From Alphaproteobacteria bacterium (lineage in GTDB: Bacteria; Pseudomonadota; Alphaproteobacteria; Bin95), in NCBI GenBank assembly GCA_963665325.3, contig OZ224045.1, positions 448,001 through 512,000 on the forward strand: a DNA stretch of 64,000 nt, written 5' to 3'. Shown piece by piece: positions 18,998-47,848 of this stretch. The stretch's first letter is position 1. Each line of letters opens with the position of its first letter. The position numbers and the translations under genes were made by a program. The notes beneath the pieces were generated by a model. That model ran no database searches and was not told the origin of the DNA. It was given only the letters and a program-made list of their open reading frames with translations.

Positions 18998-20026
18998 TCA
19001 GATGATAGTCACCACGACCGGATCGACAGGGCCGCCGTCGGCCGGGACCCAGTGAGTGCCGGCAACCGGCTGCCACTCGACGGTCAGCTGCCGGTTCAAA
19101 GGCGCCCGTTTCTCCCATTCGACCACGACATTGCCATCCTCGATCGAGACGCTCAGTCCGGCGAACCGGCCCCGGTCGAGGGCCTTGTGCCCGCCGGCGA
19201 TCTGCACCTTGCCCTTGCCGGCCCACGTCTCGGGCCGCAGGAACTCGACCTGCCCGTCTTCGACCGCGCCCTTGAGCACGAGCTCGCCCTTCTCGGGGTC
19301 ATCCGCCGTCGTCTGCCGCACTGGCGCTGCGCCAGCATCCGGCTCCCCGTAGGGCCATTGGAACCTGCTGCCGCCGCCGGAGCCGTGGTCGTCCCGCCAG
19401 CGCACCCAGAAGACCAGGCCGGGAGCCGGCTCGATGCCGTGATCGCGGAGGTCGAGCGTTCCCTTGCCGCCATCGACGGAAATGAACTTGACGATCCCCT
19501 GCCGGTATGTGTCCAGCCAGCCGTCAACGCTCCGGTCGAACCAGTTGCAGACGACAATCGTAAAGCGCGTGTAGAGGCAGTCGAGGAACGGGTGGTGCGT
19601 CTCCCAGGAGACGATCGGGCCGTCGGCAGAGATCGTCCCTTCCGTGCGTATCCACGCGATCATGGGGTTGTATTTCGACCGGGGCCTCCGCTGCCCCAGC
19701 CCGTCGCAAAGGTCCATGACCCTGCCCCGCAGAGGCTCCGGCAGTCCCCTGATCTGCGAACGGACATGCGCCCAGCCCGACGGCCGGGTCATGCTGTTGT
19801 AGGCCCCGCGCAGGCAGATACCGCCCTTGCCTGCCTTCTGGAAGATGGAGGTGATCCCGCCGTCGTAGCCGCCGCCAGAGCCTTCGCCGCTCATGCGCAT
19901 GTCCGCGACCTGGTAGTGGAACGCCTCCCAGCAGGTCTCTTCGAGCTGGATTTGCCAGGGATCGGCCAGCCCGTCGATATAGGCGCGCCAGTCGGCGACG
20001 GGCTGCATGTGCATCAGGTCGATCAT
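18998..20026 (-). CDS. Hypothetical phage protein (342 aa)
   Basis: ATGA overlap with the upstream gene; coding-like composition; no family recognised. Confidence 0.7.
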
Positions 20027-20652
20027 TCCACTTCCTCCATCGCGAAGGACGACTTGGCCGCGCCGCAATCGGGGCACTTCCAGTCGTCCGGCACGTCCTT
20101 CCAGCGGGTGAACGGCGGGATGCCCTCGTCCGGCCAGCCCCTGGTCTCGTCGTATACGAGGCCGCAGGCCGCGCACTTCCAGCGCTTGAAGACGATCTCG
20201 CCGCCCGTCAGTTCAGGCGTCCGGTGCACGAAGTTGGCCAGCCCGGCGATGTTGCCGTTCTGGTCGACCTGGAATGCGACCTCCATCGGGAGATCGGAAT
20301 CGCTCCCGAGGTAGAACCAGCGGCGGTTCTTCGCCTCGACCGGGACCAGCAGCGGGATCGTCGTGCCGGGCTCCGGTCCGATCTGCATGTCGAGGACGTG
20401 GCGGGCCACGTCGTCCCTGTCGAGTACGACCAGGACCGGCTGTTGCTCGTGCAGCGCCCGGATCAGTGACACGTCGCCCCGCTTGAACTGCGCCAGGAAC
20501 GCCTCGGCCTGGACATGCGACCGGATGGCTCCGGCCGCCGTGTTCGCGGGCTCGCCGAGCGCCTTGCGGCACTTATCGGCAGTGTCCGTGCCGACGTGGG
20601 CGACGCCTTGCAGCTTGGGCAGGTCTTGATCGGTGAGGTTGAGGATGCGCAT
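20023..20652 (-). CDS. Unknown N-terminal domain fused to a C-terminal rubredoxin
   Basis: [43 protein letters not shown] is a canonical rubredoxin sequence. Confidence 0.85.
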
Positions 20653-20683
20653 TCCGTCTCCTATCGAGCGCTGTAAACCGTCA

Positions 20684-23272
20684 TTATGGATTGACCACTC
20701 GTTGCACCAGTGCGCCGAACGCATTGCGCCGGCGCGAGAAAGCCATCGCATACGACTGAATGCCGGGGTGGAAGAAGTTGTCGGTTGCAGGAACGTTTAC
20801 TGCCGGGCTGCTGTTCAGCCGATCGAACCGAGCATCTGTCGCGTTCCAACGATACAAGTGACCGTCGGTGCCAAGGCCGAGCAGGACATTCCAGACGCCG
20901 GACCAGGCGAGCCTGTAAATCGGCGCGCCTGCGTTGGCTGTCAATTCGCTGACGCTGTCGTCTGCAAGATCGATTTCAAACAACTGGCCGCCCTGCGCGA
21001 CGGCCCAAAGTCGCTCCGAAGAGGCGGCAAGACCAGAAATCCAATCCGTGTCGGTGTAGGAGCGGTCCAGCACCAGCCGCCCGATCGCTCCGGTTTCCAG
21101 ATTGAGTTCGTGGATGGTGTTATTGCTTGCTATGGACGACAGGTAAGCCGCCGAGCCGTCGTTGGCGATGGTGAAACTTTCCGGCGTAAGGTTGCCCCAT
21201 CCCGCGCCGACGCGCTCCGCCACTCCTGTGTCGCTGTCGAACCTGAACAGGCCGCTCAGCGCCCCCGGAGTGGTTCTTGCGGCAGCGACAATATAAGCCT
21301 GCCCCGTGATCGGGTGCCAGGCCAGCCCGGTGATGTAGACGTTCGCCTGGAGCACAAAGGAGTCGTTGCGATACGGCAACCGCCGCAGTTCGTTATTGCC
21401 GTTGAAATCCCGGTAACGGAACCCCTTTATTCGACGGTTCCAGAACCCGAACTCGGCCCCTGCCAGGTGCAGCGCCTCGCTCAACTCCGTCTCGGCCAGG
21501 TCAAGCGTGTCTTCCCGGTCTTCGCGGGAATCGAAGTCGAACGGAACTGTGGTCTCCGGCTCCTCGGGCAGTTGCGTGCCGTCTGTGCCAGGGATGAGGC
21601 TGAGAGTGACCAAAGCGGTCGACGCCGAGACCAGGTGGTTCAGGGTGTGGAAGTCCGCGAAGGCGACTTCGATTTCCTTCGTGACGTCATCCAGTGTGAC
21701 GGTGACGTGCTCTACCGTGCCCCCGGCGAAGTCCGTCCTGACCGCCGCTCCGACCGTTGCGCCGATGGCATTGGTCGGCAGAATGTCATTCTCGTTGCCC
21801 GTCAGCGTCACATGGCCGGCAAAGGGCCGCTCTCCATTGTGGTCCCATGCCTCAATCACCGCCGCGATACTGGCGAGCGGGTCCGCTGCAATCACCGTGA
21901 GCGAGAACGTGTTCGTTGCCGGATCGTAACCGAACGACAGCGGTTCCCGCGCGCTGGTCGTTGCCGCCGAACCGCCGCTGAAAGCGTAGTTGCCGTGGCG
22001 CAACCAGCCGATGGCTTCATTTCCGCTTGAGTTCCACCGTCTCGCGGTGATCAGCTGGTTGCCGTTATGCCGCGCACGGTTAATTGCGGCGACGAGGTTG
22101 TCCACGGTGTAGTTCAGCGACGTGGTCAGGGTCGCGGAAAAGCCGCTCGTGTAGGTCAGCGCTGGAGGTGTATCGCGCTCTACGGTCTGGACGTCTATCC
22201 GAAAGGCATTCCCAGGCTCGCCTGCGGAGTCCACGCCTATTTCGATACCCGCACCCTGACCGCTCGCCTGAATACGCACGCTCGCATTTTGCGCGGCACG
22301 GCTGGTCGCCGGGTTTCCTCGGACTACAGCCAGATCGTAGATGTTCGGGTCGATCCCGTGGCCGGCGAAGGCTGGCGGAAGAGTGAGCCGCAGCCTATTG
22401 GCCGCGTTCCTGCCTGCCAGCGTGACGGTGGAGGGAGTGTAGCTGGGGAGCGATTTTGTCAGCAGCTTCCAGGCGTGATCCGCTTGCCCGGAATGGACAC
22501 GGACGCCGCGATTTACGTTCTCGCGGGAACGGATGTATGCCACTCCTCCGCGTGACAGTTCGGACTGAATCCGTTCGGAGAACCTGCCGTCGAATTCACC
22601 GCGAAAGACCGACTGCCCGATGTGCACGGCGGATGAGGTGAGCTGCAACAGCAGCAGGGTCACATCTCCGAGCGTGTCAGGGTCCCAGTAATAGTCCCAC
22701 ACCTCATCCACGCTGGCGCCCAGATATTGGAAATTCGTCAGCAGGTCGTAGTAGGACTGTCCGGGCGCGCCCTGGATGTCGACGCGCGCCTGCCTGGGGT
22801 CCACACCGGCCCGGACCCGCACGGCGATCCGTCCATCCAGGCCGGAATCCAGGCTGACCGCATACGAGGCGGCTCGGGCCTGTGCCAGGTTCCAGTTGCC
22901 GGTCCGAAGCGCAATCCCACCCTCGGAACCGTCGACGAGCGCATCCGTCCAGCCCGTTGCCGGCGGGGGCGCGTGCAGGTCGGAGGTGCGGTTCTGGAGG
23001 CTGGAAATCTGCTTTTCAACGGCCTCCGCGTCCCCGCTGTAGGGCAGGTCTCTGGCCTCGTAGCCATCGCCATCCGCATTGCCGACGAGCGGCTTGCCCG
23101 CGTTCCGGGTTGTCGGTTGAGGTATTTCCTGGCGCAGCACGTCCGCACGGTCGAGCGTGTTCCGCACGCCCCCGTCGAGCTGGGTCTTCGCAAGTTCCCC
23201 GTCAATCGCGGGCGCGTCGATCAGCTTGCCGTCTGCACGGGTCGATCTGATCTTGTCGGGAAAGTCCGTCAT
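20684..23272 (-). CDS. Large virion-associated / fibre-like protein with a probable C-terminal beta-propeller (862 aa)
   Basis: ATGA overlap with the upstream gene; beta-rich; repeated GLAW / LFRFD..TG blade-like segments at the C-terminus. Confidence 0.6.
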
Positions 23273-26293: not shown

Positions 26294-26988
26294 GAGCCTT
26301 CTCCCTGTTGTGCCGCACAGGCGGCGTTGCGCTGGTCGGCGGATACGTCGAAGCCGACAGCGGCCTCGATCGCCGCGACCGTCGGAATCCCGGCGGCCGT
26401 CCAGGACGCCGGGTCCTTGCCGATCTTCAGCACCGCGACGGCGCCGGCGATCGCGTCCTCGGCCTTCGCCTCGAAACCGAGCGCCCGGTAGAACGCTCCG
26501 GCCTCTTCCGGCGTTGCCCGCTTGACCGCTTCGATCGCCGTGTCGAGCGCGGCCTTGACCGTCGACGGCGTGGCGAGCGCCGGGCCGATGATCGAGTGCG
26601 AGCGCAGCCGCCCGATAAACGCGGTCCGCTCCTCCGGAGTGCCGCGCGCCCAGGCGTTCCACGCCGCGTCCAGCTGTTCCTGGCACGTCGGCGTCGAAGG
26701 CGGCGCCAGGGCCGCGTCGAGCTCCTCGGGCGTCAGCTCGCGCAGACGCGCGATCTGCGCGCTCGTGAGCGTCGGCGGATCGAGCTCGTCGACGGCCTCG
26801 TCGCCCTGGACGATGACGACGAGCTGCGGGTCGGCGCGGAGCCGCTCCAGCTGCGCCTCCGGCCAGTGGCCGGGCGGCCAGTCCACCGGCGTCGGCGTGT
26901 GCTCGACGCCGCACCGCCAGCGGGAGTCCTGGAGCGCGGAGATCGTGACGGCGGGAGTGGTCATGACGGTCCTCGTTACGCAAGCCAC
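26290..26988 (-). CDS. HI1506-like Mu head-region protein
   Basis: RWRCGVEH...W...QLERLRADPQLVV; follows the major capsid gene. Confidence 0.7.
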   Translation of the reverse strand: MACVTRTVMTTPAVTISALQDSRWRCGVEHTPTPVDWPPGHWPEAQLERLRADPQLVVIVQGDEAVDELDPPTLTSAQIARLRELTPEELDAALAPPSTPTCQEQLDAAWNAWARGTPEERTAFIGRLRSHSIIGPALATPSTVKAALDTAIEAVKRATPEEAGAFYRALGFEAKAEDAIAGAVAVLKIGKDPASWTAAGIPTVAAIEAAVGFDVSADQRNAACAAQQGEGS

Positions 26989-27899
26989 CGCGAGACCCGG
27001 AGTTCGGCCGTCCCGCGATAGACGTTGGTCGCGCCGGCGGCGTTGCGCTCGGCATTCAGGATTTCGAGCCCGTCCCGCTCCAGCGACGGCGGCACGACAA
27101 GGTGCGTCGGCTTGAGGCCGAGCGGGCGCCCGTAGTCGCCCTTCATCTCCAGCAGGGCCACGCGCGCCTTCTCATAGTTGTCCGCGTTGAGCGGCGCGTT
27201 GGAGCCGTATGCGCCCTGCCACAGCCCGAACCCGACATTGTCGCGGCAGTCGACGCCGTAGATGAACTCCTTGCGCATGAAGACGTTGTCGTCCTCTTCG
27301 CGGTCGAGGCGGATGAGATTGGAGGGCCGCTTGCGGATCTGCAGCACGACCGGCTTCATCATCTGGCCGAGGTCGAGCAGGAACCACGGCACGCCGCCCG
27401 TTGCGCCGGAGCGGGCGGCGTCATAGTCGGCGTTGGAGATCGTGGTCCCGCCGCCGGCCTTGTCGAGCACCGGGTGGTCGGTGTCGAAGAAGAACTGCCC
27501 GTCGTAGCAGGCCGTCGAGAACCCGGCCTTGAGCAGCGGCCAGACCAGCTCGTCATAGTGCTTCATCGCCGCGATGCCCATCGCGCGCATGAACGGCGAA
27601 TAGACGCCGTACTGGTCGTCCTCGATGGTGTTCCTCGGCACCCCGATCGTCTGCTCCCAGTCGCGGTTGCGGATCGTGAAATCGTGCTGGCGCAGATTCT
27701 CGACCACGCGCTCGCCGAGCCACTCCTTCATGCCCGGCAGCTGGCCGAGCCAGGGATAGACCTCCTGCGAGGTCATGGAGTTGGTGATCATGGCGACGAG
27801 CGCATATTCGCTCATCGCTTCCTGATCGATGATCCCCTGGCGGAACGAGGCGTTGTAAGCCTTGAACAGCGTGTCGAGATTGGTGCGGTTGATAATCAT
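26976..27899 (-). CDS. Mu-like major head subunit gpT
   Basis: YPWLGQLPGMKEWLGER, IEDDQYGVY, CYDGQFFFDTDHPV, GFGLWQ.AY, PTHLVVPPSLE. Confidence 0.95.
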   Translation of the reverse strand: MIINRTNLDTLFKAYNASFRQGIIDQEAMSEYALVAMITNSMTSQEVYPWLGQLPGMKEWLGERVVENLRQHDFTIRNRDWEQTIGVPRNTIEDDQYGVYSPFMRAMGIAAMKHYDELVWPLLKAGFSTACYDGQFFFDTDHPVLDKAGGGTTISNADYDAARSGATGGVPWFLLDLGQMMKPVVLQIRKRPSNLIRLDREEDDNVFMRKEFIYGVDCRDNVGFGLWQGAYGSNAPLNADNYEKARVALLEMKGDYGRPLGLKPTHLVVPPSLERDGLEILNAERNAAGATNVYRGTAELRVSRWLA

Positions 27900-28327: not shown

Positions 28328-29464
28328 TCAGTCCTCCGCCTCGCCCGCGGCAGCGAGCTCTTTCCTCGACTTGATGAAGTCTTCCTCGGAAACGCCCGTG
28401 GCGCGGCAGACCGCCTTCTCCTCGACCGTCAGCACGTCGCTGTCCGGGGCGGCCGTCGCCGGCGCGACGCGCCCGTTCGGCAGGATCGCCGGCGCGTCCT
28501 TCACGAACTCGGCGAAGCCCGCCGGGTCCTTCGAGGCATAGCCGAGCGCCCAGTCGCGCGAGGCCGGCGCGACCTTGCCGGCCTCGATCGCCTTGTCGAC
28601 CGCCGTCGAGGCCGTCGCCTTCGCGCCGTTGGCCTGCAGCGTCGCCAGGTCCGTCTTGACCCGGTCGAACTCGGCCCTCGGCACAAACTCGCCGGGGTTC
28701 CCGGCGCCCGCCGTCGCGGTCTTCACCGCCGTCGCGATCTGGGCGAGCGTCGCCCCGTCCTCGAGCCCGGCGGCCGTGCGGATCGCGCCGAGGCCGGCCT
28801 GCTGCGCGGTGAGCGCCGCCGTGGCCGTCTCGCCGGTCACCTCGCCGTCGAGGCCGAGCGCCTTGCCGACCGCAGCCAGGCCCGCCGCGCCCGCAGCCGC
28901 AAGCTCGGCGGCGGCGAGAATCTCCGCCTCGGTGGCGGTTGCGGCCAGGCCGAGGGCCTTCCGCAGCTTCGCAAGGTCCATTTCGACCTCCTCGTCTTCG
29001 GGTTGCGCGCCGGCTATGGCGCTCATGTAAAGGGCCGGGTCGTTCACCAGGGCCGCGCCCGTGATGCGCATGACCTGCCGGTTGTCCCGGCGATACTGGA
29101 AGGTGGCGCTCGTGAAGCGGTACTCGCGGGCGCGGATCATCGCCGCCGCCCGCTCGTTCCACTCGACCGCGCCCCAGATCGCGCCGTCCCGCGCGAATAC
29201 CCGCCTGATCCACCCCGCCGCCGGCGCGGGCTGGCCGTTTACCTTCGCGCGCTCCGCCTGGTGCTCATAGTCGACCGGCAGGTCCAGGCGCATGTCGCGC
29301 GTCGCGGCAACCACCGCGTCCGCATCCGGGTTCTGCCAGGGCAGGCGGCCGTCATGCGGCCGGGTCCGCACCTCGCCGGCGGGCAGCAGCAGGATTTCGG
29401 CCGGGGGCTCATTGCCACCCGGAAGCTCCGCCGCCGTCGCCGCATGGAGATATCGAACCGTCAT
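28328..29464 (-). CDS. Mu-like prohead protease/scaffold gpI
   Basis: LLPAG...DGR, PVDYEHQ, PAPAAGWI, VEWN..A...I...EYR, GAALVNDP. Confidence 0.93.
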   Translation of the reverse strand: MTVRYLHAATAAELPGGNEPPAEILLLPAGEVRTRPHDGRLPWQNPDADAVVAATRDMRLDLPVDYEHQAERAKVNGQPAPAAGWIRRVFARDGAIWGAVEWNERAAAMIRAREYRFTSATFQYRRDNRQVMRITGAALVNDPALYMSAIAGAQPEDEEVEMDLAKLRKALGLAATATEAEILAAAELAAAGAAGLAAVGKALGLDGEVTGETATAALTAQQAGLGAIRTAAGLEDGATLAQIATAVKTATAGAGNPGEFVPRAEFDRVKTDLATLQANGAKATASTAVDKAIEAGKVAPASRDWALGYASKDPAGFAEFVKDAPAILPNGRVAPATAAPDSDVLTVEEKAVCRATGVSEEDFIKSRKELAAAGEAED

Positions 29465-29624: not shown

Positions 29625-30512
29625 ATGCAAGCTGGCCTGGCCGGCACCGTCCCGCCACCCCGCACGGGGCAGGGCGGATTATCGTGGGAGCGCCTCTCTT
29701 TGTCGAATCACGCCCTCGAACCCGTCGACCCCGCGCTGCCGATCGCGCCCTGGTTCGGCGGCAAGAAATACCTGGCCGCCCGCATCGCAGAGCGGATCGA
29801 GGCTGTCCCGCACCGCTGCTATGCCGAGCCGTTCTGCGGCATGGCCGGCGTGTTCTTCCGCCGGACAAGCAGGCCGAAGAGCGAGGCGCTGAACGACATC
29901 AATGGCGAGATCGTCAACCTCTACCGCATCGTCCGCGAGCATCCCGAAGAGCTCCTCCGGCAGTTTGACTGGGCGCTGACCGCGCGGGCCGAGTTCATAC
30001 GCCTCGTCGAGACGCCGCCGGATATCCTGACCGACGTCCAGCGCGCCGCCCGCTTCGCCTATTGCCAGACGCTGATGTTCGGCGGCAAGCCCGCCACCCT
30101 CGGCAGCCGGGGCACGATATCGACCGGCCCTTACCACCCGGCGAAGATCACGACAGAGCGCCTGCAGCGCTTGGTCGGCGGCGCTCACGCCCGGCTCCAG
30201 GGCGTCCATGTCGAGAGCCTCGACTGGCGCGTCTTCATCTCCCGCTACGACAAGCCGTTCACGCTGTTCTACATCGACCCGCCCTACTGGGGCCACGAGG
30301 CGGACTACGGCAAGGGGATCTTCGCGCGGGAGGATTTCGCCGCCATGGCGGACCTGCTGCGCGGCCTCAAGGGCCGGTTCATCTTGAGCCTCAACGACCG
30401 GCCCGAGGTCCGGGAGACCTTCGCCGGGTTCGAGTTCGAGGAGGTAACGACCCGCTACTCGGCCAACGCGAAGAGCACCAGGCGCGCGGCGGAGCTGCTG
30501 ATCTCGAATTAG
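29625..30512 (+). CDS. DNA adenine methyltransferase (Dam/D12 class)
   Basis: PWFGGK, YAEPFCGMAGVFF, E.LNDINGE, FYIDPPY; start uncertain. Confidence 0.92.
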   Translation: MQAGLAGTVPPPRTGQGGLSWERLSLSNHALEPVDPALPIAPWFGGKKYLAARIAERIEAVPHRCYAEPFCGMAGVFFRRTSRPKSEALNDINGEIVNLYRIVREHPEELLRQFDWALTARAEFIRLVETPPDILTDVQRAARFAYCQTLMFGGKPATLGSRGTISTGPYHPAKITTERLQRLVGGAHARLQGVHVESLDWRVFISRYDKPFTLFYIDPPYWGHEADYGKGIFAREDFAAMADLLRGLKGRFILSLNDRPEVRETFAGFEFEEVTTRYSANAKSTRRAAELLISN

Positions 30513-30994
30513 AGCTTCGACAGCAGGTAGTCCGCGACGAGGTCCTCGATCTCGCCGGCGTCGGCGTCCGACAGGCCGAGGAACTCGCGCGCCGGGATGT
30601 CGCCCCACGGAATCGGCGACCCCTTCGACGTCGTGCCGAACGAGCCCTTTTCCGCCCCGAACTGGTGCGTGCCGGCATAGACGAGCGGGCTCCCGACCAG
30701 AACCTCCGCCGGCCCCGCCTGAAACGGGATTTGACCGCCGAGGAATCCGTCGCGTGTCAGGATGCGGCTCTTGTTCCGGCGCTTGCGCTTCCGGGTCGCC
30801 TCGGAAAGCGGCTGCCATGGCGTGCCGTCCGGGCCCCGCTCGTCGGCAAACCGGTCCTTCGTGACGCGGACCAGGTATTCGCCGATGTCGCGCATGACGG
30901 GCGTCAGGTCTTGCCCCGCGGCGGCCAGCGCGCCGAGCCGCTTCGTGGCCGTGTCGATACCGACGACGTCGATTGAAATGCGGGCGCCGGCCAT
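30509..30994 (-). CDS. Virion morphogenesis protein (Mu gpG-like)
   Basis: RF..ERGPDGTPWQPLS, YAGTHQFG, IPAREFLGLS. Confidence 0.9.
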   Translation of the reverse strand: MAGARISIDVVGIDTATKRLGALAAAGQDLTPVMRDIGEYLVRVTKDRFADERGPDGTPWQPLSEATRKRKRRNKSRILTRDGFLGGQIPFQAGPAEVLVGSPLVYAGTHQFGAEKGSFGTTSKGSPIPWGDIPAREFLGLSDADAGEIEDLVADYLLSKL

Positions 30995-30996
30995 GG

Positions 30997-31203
30997 CTAC
31001 TCGTCGGTGTGTCCGGCGCAGATGTTCTGTCGGATTGTCGCCGCCCTTGCGGAAGCGGTGCATGCGAGCTTCTCGAACAGCTCGGCCTGCTCCGTCGCGG
31101 TCGTCAGGCTCTCGACCGTCCCCTCGACAGCGATCCGCAGCGCCCATCCCGTATCGGTCTTGCGGCCCGTGACCGCGCAGATCTGTGAAAAGTCACCGCT
31201 CAT
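30997..31203 (-). CDS. Small hypothetical protein (68 aa)
   Basis: Overlaps the upstream ORF and sits in operon. Confidence 0.5.
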   Translation of the reverse strand: MSGDFSQICAVTGRKTDTGWALRIAVEGTVESLTTATEQAELFEKLACTASARAATIRQNICAGHTDE

Positions 31204-31591
31204 GTCGCTCCCCCTGCTCGCGGGCCTTCCGCGCCTCATAGTCCGCCGCCGCGCCCTCGTCGTCATATTCCTGCGGGACCAGGCCGTCGAGCGGGATCGA
31301 CTTGTCGTCGTCCCAGCTCGGCAGGTCGAAGATCGACGCGACGCCGGCGCGGGCCGCAGCAGCGTTCACGCCGTGCTCGGCCTGCATCCTGTTGGCAAGC
31401 ATCTGCTCGCCTTCGGTCATCTCGGACTCCGGCGTGATGGGCGCGTTAAGGGTTCCCCACCGGTCCTCGGCCAGCTTGCGGCCTTCTTCTTCGCCATGGC
31501 GCGCGATGCACTCGGCAAATATCCGCTCGCGGGCTTCCTCGGCCGTTTCTTCGGTCCAGGTGCCGTCGGCATTCAATCGCTCATATGCCAT
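31193..31591 (-). CDS. Acidic hypothetical protein, candidate immunity protein for the MuF toxin
   Basis: ATG overlaps the 3' end of the MuF-ART gene; 132 aa, D/E-rich. Function inferred from position. Confidence 0.55.
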   Translation of the reverse strand: MAYERLNADGTWTEETAEEARERIFAECIARHGEEEGRKLAEDRWGTLNAPITPESEMTEGEQMLANRMQAEHGVNAAAARAGVASIFDLPSWDDDKSIPLDGLVPQEYDDEGAAADYEARKAREQGERHER

Positions 31592-33995
31592 CGTCAACTT
31601 CCTCGACTTCGATCTCGACCACCCCGCGAGAGACCCTGCTTGGAGTGCCCACCACCCGCATCCTGGTTCCGGCCTTGAACAGCACCTCATCCTCGGTCGC
31701 ATATTGCGAGTAAGGCTTGATGTCCTTTCCATGCCGGCCCTTGATGACGAACCGCGTGTTGCCCCGGAACGCCTTCTCCTTCTTGCGCGACGAGCTGGAG
31801 AACGCCGCCCAAGTATGGGTGCTCCCCGGTATATAGGAAGCCTGCTCCTGCGCCGAAAGGGTCACGCCACGCCAGAACGTGCCGGCCTGGTCGGGTATGC
31901 GGTCGAGCGCGTCGTTCAGGGTGAGCATGTAGTCCTCGATCCGCTGCGCCGGCGCGCGGCCCTCGGCGAACGAATCCCGCAGCTCGTCGTTCAGCCGGCG
32001 GTAGTGATGCCAGCCGCTCTTCTCCGTCGTGTAGGAGTAGGTCGAAACCAGCTCCGGATCGGTCATCCCGTAACGCGGCGCCCCTTGCGATATCTTCCGT
32101 CTCCCGCTGCCGAGCGCATCACTATACCACGAACCCAGCGCGGCCTTCGTGCGGTCCTCATAGGCAAGCGGATTGCGGGCGGCGCGCATGGCGGCGCGCA
32201 CGCGCGGCTGGATTTCGCTCTTCAGCAGCGCGGCCCGTTCAGCCAGTAGCGTGCGGATCGCGGCGATGTCCGCCTCGGCGACGCCCGCGACCTCGGGCGC
32301 CAGGCGGGCGAAGTTGTCCGTGCGCTTGCCGAGCGCGGCGATCTCGTCGATCTGCCGGAGCGCCTGGCGCCCGAGCGCGTCGGGGCCGTCGACGCCGGCG
32401 GCGCGGAACACCCGCGTGTAGGCCGGGTTGCGGCCCGTGTCGGCGAACCCGTCCCACTCACTGATCTGGCGAAGCCGCTCCAGCGGCTTGCGCCCGGCGC
32501 GGGCCCGCATCAGCAGCGCGCCGCCCTGGTCGATCCGCGCGACCGAGTTCCAGGCCGCGCGCGTGGCGACGACATTGTCGAGCTCGAGGCCGACCGCGTC
32601 CCAGTTGGCCATCCAGACGTCGGCGGAGAAGCCCCGCAGCACCTCCTTCGACCGGCCCTTGGGCAGGCGCTTCAGCGCGCCGAGCGTGCCGGAGTGGTCG
32701 ACGATCTCGCTGGCGATGCCGACGATCCTGTCGCCGTCGCGCAGCAGCTCGGAAACCGGCGCGTCGATGCCGAGCTCCCGGTAGGCGCGGTTCGCCACCG
32801 CTTCGCCGTAAGCCTGCGCCGCGTCGTCGTAGAATTTGACATAGCGCCTCACGCCGTCGGCGCCCTCGAAAAGCCCGCCCGGATTGCTGCCGGCCTGGCG
32901 CCCGACCTGGCGGGCGGTGGCGTCGGCGCGGGAGAGCTCGCCGATGGCCCAGGGATCGGACGGCGCCGTGGCAGCCGACTGTCCCGGCGCATAGCCCCAG
33001 CCAGGATCGATTCCCTCCGGGACCTCGACGATGCGCGGGCTCGGGCCGTTCTGGCCGACGGTCACCATGCGCATGTTCAGCGGCGGCGCGGTGTCCGGCC
33101 CGGTCTTGCCGAGGCGCTGCAGGTCGCGGTCGTTCAGCGCCTCGACATAGCACTTGCAGCCCCAGCCGTTCGGCCCGTAATGCGTGTCCCACCACGGATC
33201 GTCATGGCGCAGCACCATGCCGTCCCAGGCGAGATGCTCGGCGCGCGGCTGCTCCGATGCGTGGCTGTGCCGGTAGCGCCAGTATGGCCGGCGGTCGGAG
33301 ATCGCCTTCATCTGCCGGTAGCGGCCCGCCGCATAGGACGTGCGCATGTTGGTGCCGTAGATGACCTGAGTGCGCCAGTTGCGCCCGCCCTTGTAGCTCC
33401 AGCCGTGCTTGGCGACGGTCGCGTCGAAGTCGCGGCGGAACTTCGCCAGCGTCGTGCCGTCCGCGATCGCGCTGTCGACCGCCTGGCGCAGGTCGCCCAC
33501 CAGGTCGGCATGGGCGGCGCCGGCGACGACGAAGGCGCGGTCGTGCTCGTCGTGCCAGATATCGGTCCAGGCTTCGGTCGGCAGGTTCAGCTTCGAGCGG
33601 AAGAAATCGATCTGCTCGGAGAACGACAGGCGGCTGTGCTCGGCGGCGGCCGAGGCGAGCGCGACCGGGACCTCCTCGACGTCGTAGCGCCCGGCGAGAT
33701 GCGCGGCGGCCAGCGCCGGGCCGAGCACCGCCACGGCATCCTCGACATCGGGCGTCGGCGCCCGCGGCGAGGCCAGCCAGGCGTTTGCCTCGTCGAGGCG
33801 GTCTCGGAATGCCTCCAGCGAGGCGTCCAGATCGGTGCGGAGGCCCTCCCACCAGGCGTCGATGAGCGGGCCAAGCTCGCGCGCGACGCGCGCTGTCAGC
33901 TCCGGGACCGGGCTGTCTTCTTCCTCGTCCTCGGCCAGTGCGCTCCCGTTACCGCCGCCGGCGTCACGCGCCCCGCCGGCGGCCGGCGAGGGGGG
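31581..33995 (-). CDS. Portal C-terminus + MuF (gp30) + kinase-like domain + ADP-ribosyltransferase
   Basis: MuF motifs RAFVVAGA, IYGTNMRTSY.AGR and PNGWGCKC; kinase-like YVK..E..A and D.W.ANWD..G...DN...RIDQG; ART motifs WRG, FSSSS, EDEVLF. The frame is open upstream of 33734 to ~34030. Confidence 0.85.
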   Translation of the reverse strand, partial: PPSPAAGGARDAGGGNGSALAEDEEEDSPVPELTARVARELGPLIDAWWEGLRTDLDASLEAFRDRLDEANAWLASPRAPTPDVEDAVAVLGPALAAAHLAGRYDVEEVPVALASAAAEHSRLSFSEQIDFFRSKLNLPTEAWTDIWHDEHDRAFVVAGAAHADLVGDLRQAVDSAIADGTTLAKFRRDFDATVAKHGWSYKGGRNWRTQVIYGTNMRTSYAAGRYRQMKAISDRRPYWRYRHSHASEQPRAEHLAWDGMVLRHDDPWWDTHYGPNGWGCKCYVEALNDRDLQRLGKTGPDTAPPLNMRMVTVGQNGPSPRIVEVPEGIDPGWGYAPGQSAATAPSDPWAIGELSRADATARQVGRQAGSNPGGLFEGADGVRRYVKFYDDAAQAYGEAVANRAYRELGIDAPVSELLRDGDRIVGIASEIVDHSGTLGALKRLPKGRSKEVLRGFSADVWMANWDAVGLELDNVVATRAAWNSVARIDQGGALLMRARAGRKPLERLRQISEWDGFADTGRNPAYTRVFRAAGVDGPDALGRQALRQIDEIAALGKRTDNFARLAPEVAGVAEADIAAIRTLLAERAALLKSEIQPRVRAAMRAARNPLAYEDRTKAALGSWYSDALGSGRRKISQGAPRYGMTDPELVSTYSYTTEKSGWHHYRRLNDELRDSFAEGRAPAQRIEDYMLTLNDALDRIPDQAGTFWRGVTLSAQEQASYIPGSTHTWAAFSSSSRKKEKAFRGNTRFVIKGRHGKDIKPYSQYATEDEVLFKAGTRMRVVGTPSRVSRGVVEIEVEEVDDGI

Positions 33996-35329
33996 CCGGT
34001 GGATCTCCGCCTTCCGGCGCTCGCGTCTTCAGGGTCGTCGGGGTCGTCGGGCGGGTCATCTTCCTCGCCCGGGTCCGCCATCACCCGCGGTTCGAGTATG
34101 TCATCGCCTTCCTCGGGCGCGTCCATGCCCAGCATTTCGAGCACCTGCGAGCTCCTCACCCTGAGGCCCAGCGGCACGAGCTTGGCCAGCGCGTCGGACA
34201 CGCGCGCAACGTCCAGCGTCTCCTCGCGCCCGATGACGATGCGGGGATAGCGTTTGCGTTCGCCCCGGTTAAGCGCCACCAGCGGGCGCGCGATGTCGCG
34301 CGACAGCGTCTGCGAGAGTGCAAAGGCGTCGGAGCGCTCGATATCGCGCCGGACCTCGTCATGGACGGTGCCCAACGCGCGCGAGCCGCTGTCGCCGACT
34401 TCCGTGGTGAGCGTCTGGCCGAGCACGGCCTTCGAGATCAGCGCGTCGATATAGGCCACAAGGTCCTGGTGCACCCCCGCCCGGCCGGTTCCGCCGCCGC
34501 CCTCGATCTTGGCGAACTCCAGCATCATCGATTCCGGGATCATCGCGGCCGCGTCCGAGCCGAGATTGGTCAGGGCCCGGAGCAGGAGCGCCCTGTCCTC
34601 CTCGCCCGCACCCGGAGGGAACTTGCCGATCCGGAACGGCTGGCCGTACGTCTCGATGAACTGGACCCAGTCCTTCGTGGCAAAGTTGGAATACAGGTAC
34701 CACCAGGCCACCATGCGCGCGAACCCGCCCCGGATCGGCAGACCGGACTTCGCCTTGAAGCGGTGGACCACGAACTTGAACGGCGCCAGCGGCTCGCGCC
34801 AGTTATCCAGGCCGCGCACGTGCAGCGTGCGCCCGTCGATATCGTCGAACTCGAACCAGCGCGGGTCGCGGTATTCGAGGCGCATCGGCCACCATCGCTC
34901 GGTTCCACGGTCCCACATGATCTCAGTGACCGAGAAGCCCTTGCCGAGCGCATCCATCATATCGACGAGTTCGTCTTCGAGCGGCTCACCGTCGACCCAC
35001 TCCTGAACCAGTTCCGCGTCGGCCTTCGCTTCGGCGTCGTCGCCGGCCGGGACCACGTTTACGTCGAGTTGCGCCGCCTGGCGTTTCCGGGTGCCGAGCA
35101 CAGCCAGATAGTGGAGGTTCTTCTCCTCCATCTCCTCGGCGAGCTCCAGGTAGCGGACCGCGTCGCCGGTCTCGGCCTCGCGCAGCAGCGCGCCCAGACG
35201 GCCGGGCGTAAGCCCCTGCGCCGGGTGCTCGGACAGGATCGAGCGCACGCCCGAGATCGTCGGGCCGGCCAGCTCGCGCTTCAGCTTCGAGGTTTCGACG
35301 ACATTGCCGAACTGGTCGTAAAGCGGCAT
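33896..35329 (-). CDS. Mu gp29-like portal protein (DUF935), C-terminus frameshifted
   Basis: LTPGRL..LLREA, KGFSV.EI.W, DWVQFIETYGQPFRIGK, ISKAVLGQTLT, HDEVR.D. Confidence 0.92.
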   Translation of the reverse strand: MPLYDQFGNVVETSKLKRELAGPTISGVRSILSEHPAQGLTPGRLGALLREAETGDAVRYLELAEEMEEKNLHYLAVLGTRKRQAAQLDVNVVPAGDDAEAKADAELVQEWVDGEPLEDELVDMMDALGKGFSVTEIMWDRGTERWWPMRLEYRDPRWFEFDDIDGRTLHVRGLDNWREPLAPFKFVVHRFKAKSGLPIRGGFARMVAWWYLYSNFATKDWVQFIETYGQPFRIGKFPPGAGEEDRALLLRALTNLGSDAAAMIPESMMLEFAKIEGGGGTGRAGVHQDLVAYIDALISKAVLGQTLTTEVGDSGSRALGTVHDEVRRDIERSDAFALSQTLSRDIARPLVALNRGERKRYPRIVIGREETLDVARVSDALAKLVPLGLRVRSSQVLEMLGMDAPEEGDDILEPRVMADPGEEDDPPDDPDDPEDASAGRRRSTGPPRRPPAGRVTPAAVTGAHWPRTRKKTARSRS

Positions 35330-36715
35330 CTACCAGGCCTCCGCTCGGGACGGGCCGCGCTTCCAGTCGCCGCTATGGTCCGGGCGCCAGAACCCGCGCG
35401 ACCCGGCCGGGCCGTCCGCCGTGCGCGGCGAGCGGGCGCGCGGCGCGGCCGTGTAGCCAAACTCGACCGGGCCGGTTGCGGCAGCCGACGCCATCAGCGC
35501 CGCCGCCCAGAAGCGGTCCGCGTGGCCGTCGTCGCTGTCGTCGGCCAGCAACCGGACCTGGCCGGTCGGCCCGACGACCTTTTGCACGGAATGCAGGTCC
35601 GCCCGAATCTTGGCGTCGCCCTGCGGGATGCGGATCTTCCTGTCCTCAAACCGTTCCTTCAGGCAGGTCGCCATGTGCAGTTTCGACGCCGCGCTGAATA
35701 TCACGCCCTCGACCGTGTTCCGTCCGTAGCGGCGCTGCGCGTCCTCGACCGGCTTCTCTCCCATGCCCGTCTGGTCCATGGCGAGCCGCACCGGACGGTA
35801 GCGCTCCATCATCTCGTCGAGCGTCGTGTCCTGTTCCATGAAGGTCTTGCCGCCAAGGATGCGGACCTCGCGTGTCCATGCCACGTCTCCGATCATCTCG
35901 GCCGCCCAGGCACACCAGAGGTGGCGCCGGCGTCCGATATCGTTCCCGACGAAGCACTGCCCGCCCGTGTAATGTTCCGGATAGCCGGCGAGCGGGTTCT
36001 CGCAACTGTCGATCAGCTCGTATGGCAGCCAGGCCGACGCCTCGTCCAGCCACTCGCAGAGATACTCCTGGCGCCACAGTTCTTCGTCGGCCAGGCCGGC
36101 CCGAAGCTCCTCCGGGTCGACCGGGAAGCCGTCATCGACCGCCCGGTGGATGTTCACCATATGGCGCGACCACTGGCTGTCGTCGCCCGTCATCAGCTCG
36201 TAGAACTTTCCGGACTTCCCGTGCGGCGTCGAGGTGATGCGGATCTTCCAGCCCTTGGTGATCACCGGGAACAGCGCGCCCCAGATCTCGCGGCTGCTCT
36301 TGTGGATGGCGAACTCGTCCAGGAACACATTGCGGGAATAGCCGCGGGCGGTGTCGGGGTTGGCCGGCAACGCCGTCACGATGTTGCCGCCGCCGGCGTC
36401 CCACTCGTTGGCGCGGTATTTCTGGCCGTCGATGTCCAGATCGTATTCCGTTTCCTTCAGGACGAGCCCGTAAGCCTTCGCGTGCAGCTGGATGCCGGCG
36501 CGCATCGCCTCACGCGCCTGGCGGTCGCCGCGCGACAGGATCACCCAGGGAGACGCCCGCCCCTGCGAACGGGCCGTGTAAATGTCGTCGACGATCTCCA
36601 GCGTCGTGGTGAAGGTCTTGCCGACCTGCCGCGACCAGAGCCCGATCTTGAACCGGCTCCGGTCGAGGAACCACTTCTGCTGATAGTCATAGATCGGGAC
36701 GGCCGGCTCACTCAT
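35330..36715 (-). CDS. Terminase large subunit
   Basis: YQQKW..DRSRFKI..WSRQVGKT, ALPANPDTARG, FLDEFA, STPHGK, HADRFWA. Confidence 0.94.
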   Translation of the reverse strand: MSEPAVPIYDYQQKWFLDRSRFKIGLWSRQVGKTFTTTLEIVDDIYTARSQGRASPWVILSRGDRQAREAMRAGIQLHAKAYGLVLKETEYDLDIDGQKYRANEWDAGGGNIVTALPANPDTARGYSRNVFLDEFAIHKSSREIWGALFPVITKGWKIRITSTPHGKSGKFYELMTGDDSQWSRHMVNIHRAVDDGFPVDPEELRAGLADEELWRQEYLCEWLDEASAWLPYELIDSCENPLAGYPEHYTGGQCFVGNDIGRRRHLWCAWAAEMIGDVAWTREVRILGGKTFMEQDTTLDEMMERYRPVRLAMDQTGMGEKPVEDAQRRYGRNTVEGVIFSAASKLHMATCLKERFEDRKIRIPQGDAKIRADLHSVQKVVGPTGQVRLLADDSDDGHADRFWAAALMASAAATGPVEFGYTAAPRARSPRTADGPAGSRGFWRPDHSGDWKRGPSRAEAW

Positions 36716-40213: not shown

Positions 40214-40900
40214 TCAAACCCCGCCCTGCCGCAGCCATCCCCCGAGCTCGCGGATGAGCTGGTTGAGCGTCGAGGCGTTCAGCGCCGAATAGGGCTCCTG
40301 CGCGCGCCGGAACCCGACGACCCAGCTGTGCAGCGCGCCATGGTCGGCGATCTTGACCTTGCCCACATCGGCAAGTTTGCGCCAGAGCGCCTCCAGGATG
40401 CGCGCGCCGGGGTTGGGCGCCGGGCGCTTGCCGGAGCGCGCGTAGGGGCTCCAGTCCACGCCGCCGTCCCTGGCCATCCAGTCCTTCAGCGCCTCGATGC
40501 AGGCCGAGGTCTGCGCCGGCGTCGCCCAGCGCGCGGCGTCCATGCCCGTCTGGCGGCACATCCAGGCGGCGAGCGCCGTGTCCCGGTTGTCAGTGACCAC
40601 ACCGAGCCAGTATGCCGATATCCAGAGCGCCCGCAGCTTCGAGGTGTGCGGGCCGGCGGGGAGGACCGACGGACGGGAGGCAACCTTGGCCCGCCCGCCG
40701 GCCCGAACCGGCCGCCCTGTTTGTCGGCCGGCCAGGGCGGCCAGGACCCGGCGCATTTCGGCCTCGTTCATCTCCTTCAGCGATTCCTTTCCCGTGACGC
40801 GAACCTGCACCGCATGGCGCGCGTCCTCGTCGAGGCCGCGCCGGCGGCACTCGCCGAAGATCGCCCGGCGAAGGCGAGACAGGTCGGGCGCGGCAGTCAT
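40214..40900 (-). CDS. gemA: GemA / gp16 family protein (DUF1018)
   Basis: GLDEDAR.....VTGKESL.EM, KLRALWIS...LG.V, IEALK.W..R. Confidence 0.85.
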   Translation of the reverse strand: MTAAPDLSRLRRAIFGECRRRGLDEDARHAVQVRVTGKESLKEMNEAEMRRVLAALAGRQTGRPVRAGGRAKVASRPSVLPAGPHTSKLRALWISAYWLGVVTDNRDTALAAWMCRQTGMDAARWATPAQTSACIEALKDWMARDGGVDWSPYARSGKRPAPNPGARILEALWRKLADVGKVKIADHGALHSWVVGFRRAQEPYSALNASTLNQLIRELGGWLRQGGV

Positions 40901-41931
40901 TCCGCCTCCTCCTCCTTGCCCCACAGCGCCGGATCGTTGCCCCAGACGGTCCAGCCGGGGCGGGGCTTGCGCCCGAACAGTTCCAGATAAGGGCCCGCGA
41001 CCAAGCTCTCGACGCTCTCATAGACTTCTTGCGGCTTCTCGCTGTGCTTACCGCGGGGCGCGAAGATTCTCTCATCGACGCCGGCGTCGATCCGAGACGG
41101 GCTGCCGCGCGTGCCCAGCAGACAGATTTCCACGCCCTTGCGCGTCCAGTAGCCCTTTGCCGGGGCGCCGCCCTTTATCCAGACAAGCCCCGTGGTCGAA
41201 TACTTGAACCCCCACCGCTTCAGCACGTCGAGCGCGTTCTCCAGCTGGTCGCTGGTCGTCCACATGAGCAGCACGGCGTCATCGGCGGCGCAGGCCTTGA
41301 CCTGCGGACCGAGCGCCTTGATGTCGTCGAGGGCCATCGTCGGGTAATGGTTCTCCGCCGAGCGATCCTTTCCCGCGTCGCTCCAGCTCTCGAACCGCCA
41401 GGGCGGGTCCGCCAGGATGACGGGCCACTTACCGACCGGGAACTCCCGAGTGTCGCCGCCACCGGTGTCATGCCGCCGCTCGATCAGGCGGCGCTTCACG
41501 GCGCCGCGTTTCATTTCGGGATGGATAACGCCGTGGTCGACCAGTTCGTCGAATGCCTCGGGTTCCAGGCCGGCGATCTCGTCGAGGATCAGCTGGTCGT
41601 TTGGGAGGGGGGTGTTAACGATGTTAACGCCGTCCAGATAACGACCGATGTTCGGGTCGAGGCCGATCCGCATAAGTCGTGCCGCCGTCTGCCGCGAAAT
41701 CGGCAGCGTCTGTGCGAGCCAGCCACCCCATTGGCCGTCGCCGGCCCGCTTCCGATAAGCGGCGAGCGCACGGCCGACGATGACGAATCCGACGACGCCC
41801 ATCCGCCAGCCGAGCTGCGCATGGTTCGTGCAGAGACGCTCGAAATCGGGCCAATGCAGCCTGTCATCGTCAAGCGGCGCAAGCAGTTCGCCGAGGCCCG
41901 CGCCTGCCGGCGGCAACACTTCCCCCGTCAT
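40897..41931 (-). CDS. MT-A70 family adenine methyltransferase with a DUF3102-like N-terminus
   Basis: VILADPPW, HYPTM, WGF.Y, E.CL.GTRG.P, HSEKP, YLELF.R...GW.VWGN. Confidence 0.9.
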   Translation of the reverse strand: MTGEVLPPAGAGLGELLAPLDDDRLHWPDFERLCTNHAQLGWRMGVVGFVIVGRALAAYRKRAGDGQWGGWLAQTLPISRQTAARLMRIGLDPNIGRYLDGVNIVNTPLPNDQLILDEIAGLEPEAFDELVDHGVIHPEMKRGAVKRRLIERRHDTGGGDTREFPVGKWPVILADPPWRFESWSDAGKDRSAENHYPTMALDDIKALGPQVKACAADDAVLLMWTTSDQLENALDVLKRWGFKYSTTGLVWIKGGAPAKGYWTRKGVEICLLGTRGSPSRIDAGVDERIFAPRGKHSEKPQEVYESVESLVAGPYLELFGRKPRPGWTVWGNDPALWGKEEEAE

Positions 41932-42085
41932 TCCACACATCCCTCCCGGTGATGCCGTTCGAGCGTCACCACCAGTTTCGTTCCGTCCTGCGCCTCCAGC
42001 GTCATCGCCGGCATTTCCTCGCGCCTGCGGTCGCCTTCACGGCCCTTGAGATTGTGCGCCAGCACCTCGATCAGCTCGTCGGCGC

Positions 42086-44716: not shown

Positions 44717-45685
44717 TCATGCCGCTTCCTCTGCCGCCGCTGCCACGTCCAGGCTCGCCGCCTCGAGGTCGGCGCTGTCGATCCGCTCCCGCCCTTGCGT
44801 GCGGGCGATCATCCAGGCGCGCGCCAGCGTGCGGCGGAGCGCATGCAGGCCGCCCGGCCCGCGCGCGGCGCCCATGGCGGCCTTCATGTCGCGCTTCGTC
44901 GGCGCACGGCCCAGCACGCCGGCCAGCAGCGCCTCGACGTCGATATCGGACGGCGCGCGCCGCTCGATGCGCCCGCCGATCCGCCCGACGATCTGCGGAC
45001 AGCGCGCCAGCGTCATCCGGACCGAGCTGTCGCCGATCAGCGCCAGCCCGCAATGCGCGATGTCCCGGATGCGCCGGAGCTCGTCGAGGCACCGCGCCGA
45101 AAGGTGGTGCGCCTCGTCGACACAGAGCAGCGCGCCCCGGTCCCGGAGCGTATCGATCACCGCCGTCTCCGCGTCGAGCGCCGAGCCGTGCCGGCCTCCG
45201 GCGCCGACCGCCGCGCCGACCCTGCCGAGCAAGCCCGACAGCGTCCTGACCGCGCAGGTCATTTCCGCGTAGAACGCCGTGGAGTGCGTCCGGCAGTAAT
45301 GCTCGACCGACCAGCTCTTGCCGACGCCGGACACCCCGTGCACCAGCACGATGTCGCCGACCGCCTGGGCGTGTCCGAGCAGCGAGGAGATTTCGTCCGC
45401 CACATCGAGATTGCGGTGGATGTCGAGCCCGGCCGCCTCGAGGCTGTGGCGCCGCGTCTGGCGCTGGGTGTGCAGCCAGCGTCCGATCTTCGCTTCAACG
45501 GCGTTGTTGTCGCCCTTGTAATTGCCATTCAACCAGGCGCTTATCGCCCCTGGAGACAGTCCGGGGATCAGGCGCGAAGCCGCGTTCTGGCTTATCTTCA
45601 GCCGCGCGAGCTCGGCCAGGAACTCCTCTCTCGTCGCCAGGCCGGGAGCTTCCGCGGCCGCCAGCCGGTGGACATTCTCAGTCAT
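44717..45685 (-). CDS. MuB-like transposition ATPase
   Basis: N-terminal HTH, Walker A GVSGVGKS, Walker B LCVDEAHHL, LR.I.D....GLALIG. Confidence 0.92.
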   Translation of the reverse strand: MTENVHRLAAAEAPGLATREEFLAELARLKISQNAASRLIPGLSPGAISAWLNGNYKGDNNAVEAKIGRWLHTQRQTRRHSLEAAGLDIHRNLDVADEISSLLGHAQAVGDIVLVHGVSGVGKSWSVEHYCRTHSTAFYAEMTCAVRTLSGLLGRVGAAVGAGGRHGSALDAETAVIDTLRDRGALLCVDEAHHLSARCLDELRRIRDIAHCGLALIGDSSVRMTLARCPQIVGRIGGRIERRAPSDIDVEALLAGVLGRAPTKRDMKAAMGAARGPGGLHALRRTLARAWMIARTQGRERIDSADLEAASLDVAAAAEEAA

Positions 45686-47645: not shown

Positions 47646-47848
47646 GCCACCGCCTCGCTCTCGCGGCGGTAGACGATGCTCTCCGGCAAGCGGGCAAAGG
47701 CCTCGCCGATCTCGACCTTCCAGGTCCGGCCCCGCGCCGTTCGCACGGTAACCACCGTGCCTGGCGCGAGCTCGTCCGTGCCGGCGATCTCGACGCCCCA
47801 TTCCTGGCGGCGCAGCGATATCAACCGGGGCTTCCCAATGACAGTCAT
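47642..47848 (-). CDS. Small hypothetical protein
   Basis: ATGA overlaps on both sides. Confidence 0.55.
   Translation of the reverse strand: MTVIGKPRLISLRRQEWGVEIAGTDELAPGTVVTVRTARGRTWKVEIGEAFARLPESIVYRRESEAVA

Follow-up and report, generated by a model that had tools for sequence, protein, structure and literature searches.

The question raised by the locus described here is whether a phage portal protein and a cargo of two enzymes, encoded in different reading frames, are made as a single polypeptide. The locus lies on the minus strand of a 64,000-nucleotide stretch of alphaproteobacterial DNA (contig OZ224045.1, positions 448,001 to 512,000; this whole stretch is called the window and its own numbering is used throughout). 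There a Mu-type portal gene is overlapped by a long open reading frame (ORF) displaced by -1, which encodes a portal-like C-terminal segment, a MuF minor head protein domain, a protein-kinase-like domain and an ADP-ribosyltransferase (ART). From the sequence we consider recoding of the -1 type to be quite probable, ribosomal slippage being its likeliest mechanism. We lean, with slightly less confidence, towards a fuller reading in which the slip would yield both a short portal and a portal-MuF-kinase-ART fusion, the cargo of which would be cut free and injected.

A portal gene overlapped by a long -1 frame

The zero-frame gene (33896..35329, minus strand, as are all features of the locus itself) encodes a portal of the Mu gp29 type with 477 amino acids (aa). 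It matches Pfam Portal_Mu (PF06074) over residues 62-401 with an E-value of 9.3e-97, scoring 324.8 bits against a gathering score of 23.9 and covering profile positions 2-335 of 336, and it matches the portal family PHROG 113 with an E-value of 9.7e-125. The final 30 zero-frame residues, beyond the candidate slip site, fall within the overlap of the two frames and are unlike portal.

The second frame is -1 relative to the portal and stays open for 815 codons plus a stop (31581..34028), being bounded upstream by a -1 stop at 34029-34031 and closed by the stop codon at 31581-31583. It encodes, in order, a linker with the motif ARDAGG, a portal C-terminal segment, the MuF domain, the kinase-like domain, a helical linker and the ART. 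The portal C-terminal segment, which we call the B segment (SPVPELT...LAGRYDV, 33678..33914), has the terminal letters ALAAAHLAGRYDV at 33678-33698. The earliest ATG, GTG or TTG of the whole frame is a GTG at 33734, and three quarters of the B segment lies upstream of it. The MuF domain (33144..33491; Mu gp30, SPP1 gp7 family) sits directly downstream of the portal body and is recognised by Pfam Phage_Mu_F (PF04233; E 7.8e-14, residues 180-295 of 815, 52.8 bits against a cut-off of 29.6) and by PHROG 220 'minor head protein and DNA pilot' (E 4.1e-94, residues 104-375).

An earlier description of this DNA, referred to below as the original prediction, had proposed that a single -1 shift at the G6 run at 33990-33995 connects the portal to the MuF frame and gives a product of about 1250 aa. 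The frames agree with it: a -1 slip at the C run, as the coding strand reads, would join 447 portal residues to 802 residues of the long frame in a predicted product of 1249 aa.

Conservation of the -1 layout

A survey with the B segment returned 48 locus rows with a match, the rows not being de-duplicated. In 36 of the 48 the segment prolongs a long ORF coming from upstream, in the reading frame of the portal body, which upholds the likeness to the C-terminus of Mu gp29 that had been claimed for it. Of these in-frame rows 33 have 422-825 open codons upstream and three are ended by a contig edge, and the ORF closes 45-198 codons past the start of the B segment. As read from these sequences, the portal ordinarily ends with the B segment and MuF has a gene of its own. 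Annotations of the cultured phages phiSHP3 and JBD25 follow this layout, the B segment of phiSHP3 lying under the annotated portal gene. Mu likewise has the C-terminal segment in the frame of its portal and encodes F (gp30) separately, whereas in the window the segment lies behind the candidate slip site.

A different arrangement, that of the window, is found in 11 rows representing nine distinct loci (the window, L001-L005, L007, L020, which is the same as L121, and L021, which is the same as L120). In all of these the portal body is in frame 0, the B segment and MuF are in frame -1, and no stop separates the B segment from MuF. A comparison of homologues had been suggested as a check on the shift, and the same -1 relation recurs in each of the nine. 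These loci span three lineages and have portal bodies of two types; L020 and L021 are without the kinase-ART. Because the two types of portal body are 27% identical, the junction module is common to very different portals. Despite this divergence the MuF of the window is about 80% identical to those of L020 and L021, and the shared junction cassette and B-MuF module suggest recombination at the portal/cargo boundary. The kinase-ART also occurs attached to another MuF, downstream of a complete portal gene, in L115 (from G008, a genome of the same genus) and in L100 (a metagenome contig), and since it is attached to two different MuF/portal layouts it behaves as a movable cassette.

A protein search gave proteins of 1141-1248 aa that unite Portal_Mu, MuF and ART in one frame (58-64% identity), as well as many in-frame fusions of portal and MuF, and the existence of the former argues that the 1249-aa joined protein is a real architecture. 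For the nearest relatives (67-88% identity) the gene calls are proteins of 700-810 aa, with starts scattered in or before the B segment. Searches of 37 genomes of the family and order, the window's own included, and of 401 genomes of the class found no further -1 layouts, only standard or portal-stop-MuF ones, and none of the 14 loci in a scan of metagenome_contigs had the -1 layout. Portal and MuF in the same frame, split by a single stop (TGA, TAG or TAA), were observed in L115, L100, L018 (phiSHP3), L289, L290 and L295/L300; this arrangement could be due to chance, at one in three, or could allow stop-codon readthrough to a fusion.

Selection and start codons in the -1 frame

The B segment is under purifying selection in the -1 frame. 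Its ratio of nonsynonymous to synonymous polymorphism (pN/pS) is 0.22-0.60 in that frame against 1.05-4.46 in the other two, in eight of eight pairs, and its ratio of nonsynonymous to synonymous substitution (dN/dS) is 0.16-0.42 in nine of ten pairs, the pair of the window and L020 giving 1.02. At six of the nine loci the first ATG, GTG or TTG of the -1 frame comes 120-459 nucleotides (nt) past the start of the B segment, and in L001 and L002 a TTG stands 24 nt upstream of it without a Shine-Dalgarno-like sequence. In L020 the -1 frame is open for about 800 nt upstream and has a GTG 774 nt ahead of the B segment.

A candidate slip site

The zone in which the frame must change is 49-136 nt long in eight of the nine loci, L020 setting no such bound. 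In the window it opens at 34028 and must end before ARDAGG (33971). ARDAGG and the following D(D/E)PVPxL, both in the -1 frame, match the in-frame fusions P0012, P0017, P0018 and P0022, and because this match begins at ARDAGG any entry into the -1 frame would have to lie upstream of 33971. Reinitiation at the CTGA stop is ruled out on the same ground, the homology to in-frame fusions starting upstream of it, and a +1 slip on CCC-C is ruled out by the frames, which demand -1.

Within this zone lies the candidate slippery heptamer C CCC CCT (33989..33995, the G6 run plus one base). It keeps the phase of the portal codons GGC CCC CCT, and the 130-nt overlap has no second X XXY YYZ in that phase. 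As background, the 478 codons of the portal ORF in the window contain two such heptamers and the 816 codons of the long ORF none. Seven of the nine loci have an in-phase heptamer inside the overlap, where shuffling would lead one to expect 2.3: the window, L020 and L021 share C CCC CCT, L001, L002 and L004 have C CCT TTT, and L005 has T TTT TTT. The site is a homopolymer or near-homopolymer in all nine (C6, C7, C5T4, T9 or T4).

A hairpin with the pattern CCGCCGGCG-N10-CGCCGGCGG (33955..33982) is predicted to begin 6 nt after the heptamer, with a minimum free energy of -28 to -29.6 kcal/mol. The same heptamer at the same aligned place is found in L020, L021 and L006, and all three, like the window, have a GC hairpin of 9-13 bp 6 nt downstream, the letters of the stem being identical across them. 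Heptamer and hairpin together form an island of 80-83% three-way nucleotide identity, compared with 23-43% in the 120 nt immediately upstream. The hairpin pattern with a loop of 8-12 nt (CCGCCGGCG-N8-12-CGCCGGCGG) had at least 121 matches in viral_contigs and none of the 80 loci examined was in a portal/MuF context, so that the hairpin motif by itself, being frequent in GC-rich DNA, is uninformative. A scan for the heptamer plus the 5' arm had 18 matches, among which only L317 and L318, the contigs of L020 and L021, were portal junctions.

One row of the 48, L006, is an in-frame portal-B-MuF fusion and the only in-frame fusion that we viewed at the DNA level. It retains (4970-5031) both the heptamer in phase and the GC hairpin, and its frame differs through a 1-nt indel in the hairpin loop. 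The -1 frame of L006 meets a TGA immediately, so a slip there would yield a short portal.

The length of the C run was checked in Logan contigs from four public sequencing runs of two studies, in which all letters across 33990-33995 are identical and no indel occurs; the G6 on which the original prediction depended is in this respect sound, with the limits that Logan contigs drop rare variants and that one of the four runs may be the window's own sample. The run is C6 in L020 and C7 in L021 and the -1 relation is kept in both, which, together with the four identical runs, argues that the shift is not an assembly error.

Alternative explanations

Several observations weigh against programmed slippage, or at least against its being the only route to the second frame. 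Against dinucleotide shuffles the hairpin shows no gain in stability, its z-scores being -0.07 in the window, 0.52 in L020, -0.36 in L021 and 0.23 in L006, and for the six loci of the TTT class RNAalifold finds no convincing common structure (covariation term 0.06). L003 (G CCT TTT) and L007 (G CAT TTT) have no canonical heptamer, and a C-only heptamer is not known to be among the classical efficient bacterial slip sites. The nine loci are not independent, six coming from two metagenome-assembled genomes (MAGs) and two from one metagenome, and variants in the length of the C run may escape a check made at the level of contigs. L115 and L100 encode a complete portal together with a separate MuF-kinase-ART. 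In the window GAGGA lies 5 nt before the GTG at 33734, and a separately started MuF-kinase-ART of 717 aa may be made from it, possibly alongside the fusion.

If that protein and a shortened portal were the only products, the two would be separate genes and the roughly 100 open codons upstream of the GTG would be the untranslated relic of a fusion. The GAGGA and the separate gene in G008 and L100 speak for this, as do the gene call of the collection (P0001, 715 aa) and the later starts of P0002, P0003, P0008 and P0010. We nevertheless think it unlikely, for the start-less stretch is open in nine of nine loci and under purifying selection in the -1 frame, the internal starts fall at varying places 120-459 nt into the segment, and the 24-43% protein divergence of the segment among the TTT-class loci would have left time for a relic to decay. 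Slippage of RNA polymerase, or variation in the length (phase) of the homopolymer at the DNA level, could take the place of ribosomal slippage, and the homopolymer or near-homopolymer at nine of nine sites would suit either process. The T9 of L005 matches known transcriptional slip sites in length, but C6, and the T4 of L003 and L007, are short for polymerase slippage or phase variation. The contigs of the four runs contain no length variant, though contigs hide rare ones, and in seven of nine loci the phase of the run fits X XXY YYZ; we take this explanation to be a little less likely still than that of two genes. Least probable of the three is a broken gene or an assembly error, in which an in-frame portal-MuF-kinase-ART fusion would have lost one base. 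The in-frame relative L006 does differ by one base in the hairpin loop, and several of the -1 loci come from MAGs. However, the sequence is identical in four runs of two studies, the direction and place of the shift are the same in nine loci of diverged sequence, and the 815-codon frame is intact and under selection in a prophage that is otherwise intact.

The kinase-like domain

Behind MuF lies a protein-kinase-like domain (32184..32960) that belongs to no Pfam family. The original prediction had described it as PI3/4-kinase/HipA-like on the strength of the motifs GSNPGG, YVK, DVWMANWD and RIDQG. These motifs are present: the putative Gly loop GSNPGG (32874-32891), the Lys in RYVKFY (32829-32846), the Glu in YGEAVAN (32790-32810), DVWMANWD (32598-32621), LDN (32568-32582) and RIDQGG (32520-32540). 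An AlphaFold model of residues 355-815 of the long frame has a pLDDT of 91.7, the kinase-like domain being model residues 3-261. In this model the domain has a two-lobed, kinase-like fold with equivalents of the Gly loop, the Lys, the Glu, the D..N pair and the D-x-G with its presumed metal-binding Asp.

The best match of the domain in VIA-align is CtkA (3akj; Z 17.1, rmsd 3.3, 217 residues aligned), followed by MavQ (7m7a, Z 13.9), HipA (4pu3, 13.3) and PI4KIIalpha (4pla, 12.8), with CotH, actin-fragmin kinase, Fam20 and Rio lower down. The description as PI3/4-kinase/HipA-like thus agrees with the nearest folds. The matches between Z 17.1 and 12.8 cover 204-236 aligned residues at 10-16% identity. 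In Foldseek the kinase domain alone gives weak kinase matches (E 4.7e-5 to 1.4e-3, TM 0.35-0.46), the listing for the whole model being dominated by ARTs. Among 42 sequences G26, G30, G31, K44, E55, D116, W118, N121, W122, D123, D130, N131 and R144 are invariant and D146 is nearly so (90% or more); in the model the invariant residues map to the Gly-rich loop, strand 3, helix C, the catalytic loop and the DFG-equivalent.

The domain matches no Pfam family at E-values up to 10, HipA_C, HipA_2 and PI3_PI4_kinase included, and nothing in PADLOC; the leads from Atlas are HipA_2 (0.92), PI3_PI4_kinase (0.91) and LepB_N (0.91). It resembles Helicobacter pylori CtkA, the HipA toxins and the PI3/4-type lipid kinases in that these are its best fold matches and the motif equivalents are kept, but differs from them in its low identity and in matching none of their Pfam models. 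The family is large, with 3530 clusters at E-values up to 0.001 among 1.84 billion representatives, and its members mostly lie within proteins of 250-3700 aa (P0121-P0266; up to 3673 aa). A large family of kinase-like domains that has no Pfam model and travels with phage effectors is thereby defined. An ORF of more than 1521 aa in L107 also contains a member.

The ADP-ribosyltransferase domain

The C-terminal domain (31593..32171, including N-terminal helices) has the fold and motifs of an R-S-E, cholera-toxin-like arginine ART, as far as sequence profiles and the model indicate. The Arg lies in TFWRG (31866-31880), the SSS in AFSSSS (31788-31805) and the ExE in TEDEVLF (31677-31697). Scores exceed the cut-offs of two Pfam families, ART (28.6 against 22.3) and ADPrib_exo_Tox (24.8 against 23.4), and a profile search of the Protein Data Bank (PDB) finds Tre1 (6drh) with an E-value of 7.7e-32. 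Tre1 is also the closest structure (Foldseek TM on the target 0.87; VIA-align Z 21.9, rmsd 2.2, 179 residues aligned), and its motifs YRG, STS and EAE align with FWRG, FSSSS and EDE. The R-S-E ART that had been read from WRG, FSSSS and EDE thus holds up. Tre1 ADP-ribosylates FtsZ and further bacterial proteins, according to the available portion of a review (PMC8120803).

The small downstream ORF

An acidic ORF of 132 aa (31193..31591), which overlaps the end of the long ORF, is a candidate immunity gene. It stands directly downstream in six of six kinase-ART relatives (L001-L005, L007) with 48-62% identity and a conserved core PESE(L/M)TE...MQ(A/S)E. A tblastn search found no counterpart in three loci without the kinase-ART (L020, L021 and L006) or in three that have a kinase-ART of another layout (L115, L100 and L101). 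No PHROG or PADLOC family and no Pfam family at E-values up to 10 matches it. This distribution fits a role as immunity protein or chaperone, and immunity is the probable one.

Likeness to the Tre1/Tri1 pair of Serratia proteamaculans (6drh/6dre) consists in the ART, for which Tre1 is the nearest solved structure, in the R-S-ExE motifs, and in an adjacent small gene of presumed immunity function. The two systems differ in that Tre1 rides on a PAAR protein of a type VI system and Tri1 has a DraG-like hydrolase domain, going by the accessible part of PMC8120803, while the small ORF of the window matches no family. Immunity in Tre1/Tri1 pairs comes from a DraG-like ADP-ribosylhydrolase (ARH) domain or from an N-terminal extension that occludes. 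An ARH domain is absent from the small ORF, and 132 aa is too short for one.

Proposed mechanism

Under ribosomal slippage, normal decoding would give the 477-aa portal, which would end about where the Mu portal gets trimmed. A minority of ribosomes would slip back one base at C CCC CCT (33995-33989) and read on through the cleavable portal C-terminal segment, MuF, kinase and ART into the 1249-aa fusion. Electron cryo-microscopy (cryo-EM) of the Mu virion shows a portal gp29 without its 124 C-terminal residues, a loss that the study attributes to protease I (PMC11915804). About 105 residues separate the slip site from the end of the segment equivalent to this trimmed C-terminus, so that the zero-frame product would resemble a ready-trimmed portal and the trans-frame product would carry the cleavable piece plus the cargo.

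Because it carries the portal body, the fusion would co-assemble into the portal ring, leaving a few copies of the cargo per procapsid. The prophage encodes a homologue of Mu protease I/scaffold (28331-29464, minus strand; Pfam Mu-like_Pro, E 5.6e-73), which by analogy with Mu probably releases B-MuF-kinase-ART inside the head. The cargo would then exit with the DNA into the next host cell, a step that follows the proposal made for MuF toxins (PMC5576092) and what is known of T4 Alt (PMC8120803) as given in the available portions of these papers. The lysogen would be shielded from the toxin by the product of the small acidic ORF.

If this is true, a portal ring of 12 subunits could bear a bulky cargo of 800 residues in just a few copies, and the targeting of MuF toxins to the capsid would be explained. 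Annotation would also have to change, as gene callers truncate such genes at arbitrary internal starts. The window would be the Mu-type case, with the slip before the cleavable C-terminus of the portal and a two-enzyme cargo behind it. A wider proposal, which we regard as doubtful, is that the slip cassette is a general stoichiometry switch for portal-tethered cargo at the protease-cleavage boundary, with out-of-frame genes and in-frame, L006-like genes making both forms in opposite proportions. In the same tentative scheme kinase and ART would jointly hit host division or translation proteins, steering lysogeny or killing non-immune neighbours.

Comparison with known systems

Programmed frameshifts in phage structural genes are textbook knowledge for tail chaperones and some capsid proteins. 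The arrangement proposed here is like the programmed frameshift of tail chaperone G/GT, described for lambda and for most phages with long tails (Xu, Hendrix and Duda 2004, as cited in PMC3483164 and in PMC2628397), in which a conserved -1 slip at X XXY YYZ lets a single start serve a shorter and a longer product at a fixed ratio. It is unlike G/GT in that the slip gene would be the portal, that the long product would bear another head protein and two enzymes, and that it is predicted here from sequence. A frameshift joining portal to MuF, or one conserved within portal genes, was not found described in the literature searched, as far as its available text goes. The same sources do describe MuF toxins and polyvalent effectors, along with fusions of MuF to the portal (in frame) and to an ART.

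The locus has the features of a MuF polymorphic toxin: a MuF domain, a C-terminal toxin found on two layouts, a conserved small downstream ORF with a putative immunity role, and a Mu-like prophage as its setting. According to the portion available of Jamet et al. 2017 (PMC5576092), ARTs make up 14% of 191 MuF toxins, and those systems likewise have MuF near the portal gene, a C-terminal toxin, a prophage location and a proposed delivery with DNA. They differ from the window, in which MuF would be reached from the portal gene and there are two enzyme domains; the words 'frameshift' and 'kinase' are both absent from the text of PMC5576092.

Several effector domains in one virion-packaged polypeptide are, in turn, a feature of the polyvalent proteins that phages and conjugative elements encode (Iyer et al. 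2017, PMC5512222), for which the accessible text reports effector domains fused to MuF and portal, with kinase and ART among the components. The original prediction had seen in the locus a two-enzyme effector attached to the portal, and had set this apart from MuF toxins with a single toxin domain. The architecture stands, while the novelty does not, polyvalent proteins having already been described in the part of PMC5512222 at hand. The kinase group of that paper is described there as having no C-terminal subdomain, a conserved His and a distribution in Verrucomicrobia and Bacteroidetes. Going by this description the kinase-like domain of the window appears different, with its D..N / DQG pattern, and recoding is not described in the same text. 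Some Microbacterium phages (PMC7302621) also have portal and MuF as one gene, with an ART (VIP2) on MuF, but as far as the available text shows these fusions are in frame, belong to actinophages and are without a kinase.

The prophage

The portal-cargo stretch is part of a Mu-like transposable prophage on the minus strand, in a window with a G+C content of 69%. From its gene content the prophage looks intact, being complete from MuA/MuB to the tail genes. It has a MuA transposase (45681-47801), MuB (44720-45880) and genes for GemA and lysozyme. The stretch is flanked by the gene for the large terminase (35333-36715), which precedes it, and by gene G for the virion morphogenesis protein (30512-31147), which follows it. 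The major head protein T (26979-27899) also comes after the stretch, and the structural region further includes Gp36, tail terminator, baseplate, sheath and tape-measure genes.

A few other genes were observed in and around the prophage. The tail/baseplate module has an ORF with a PAAR motif and fibronectin-III domains (16384-17694, minus strand), and an ORF with a C-terminal rubredoxin domain (20026-20751, minus strand) lies amid the structural genes. A D12-class Dam methyltransferase is encoded on the opposite strand (29625-30509, plus strand), inserted between gene G and protease I, and an MT-A70 DNA methyltransferase (40900-41940, minus strand) adjoins GemA. Outside the prophage there is an adhesin-like ORF of 1497 aa with Calx-beta and LapA domains (50724-55214, plus strand).

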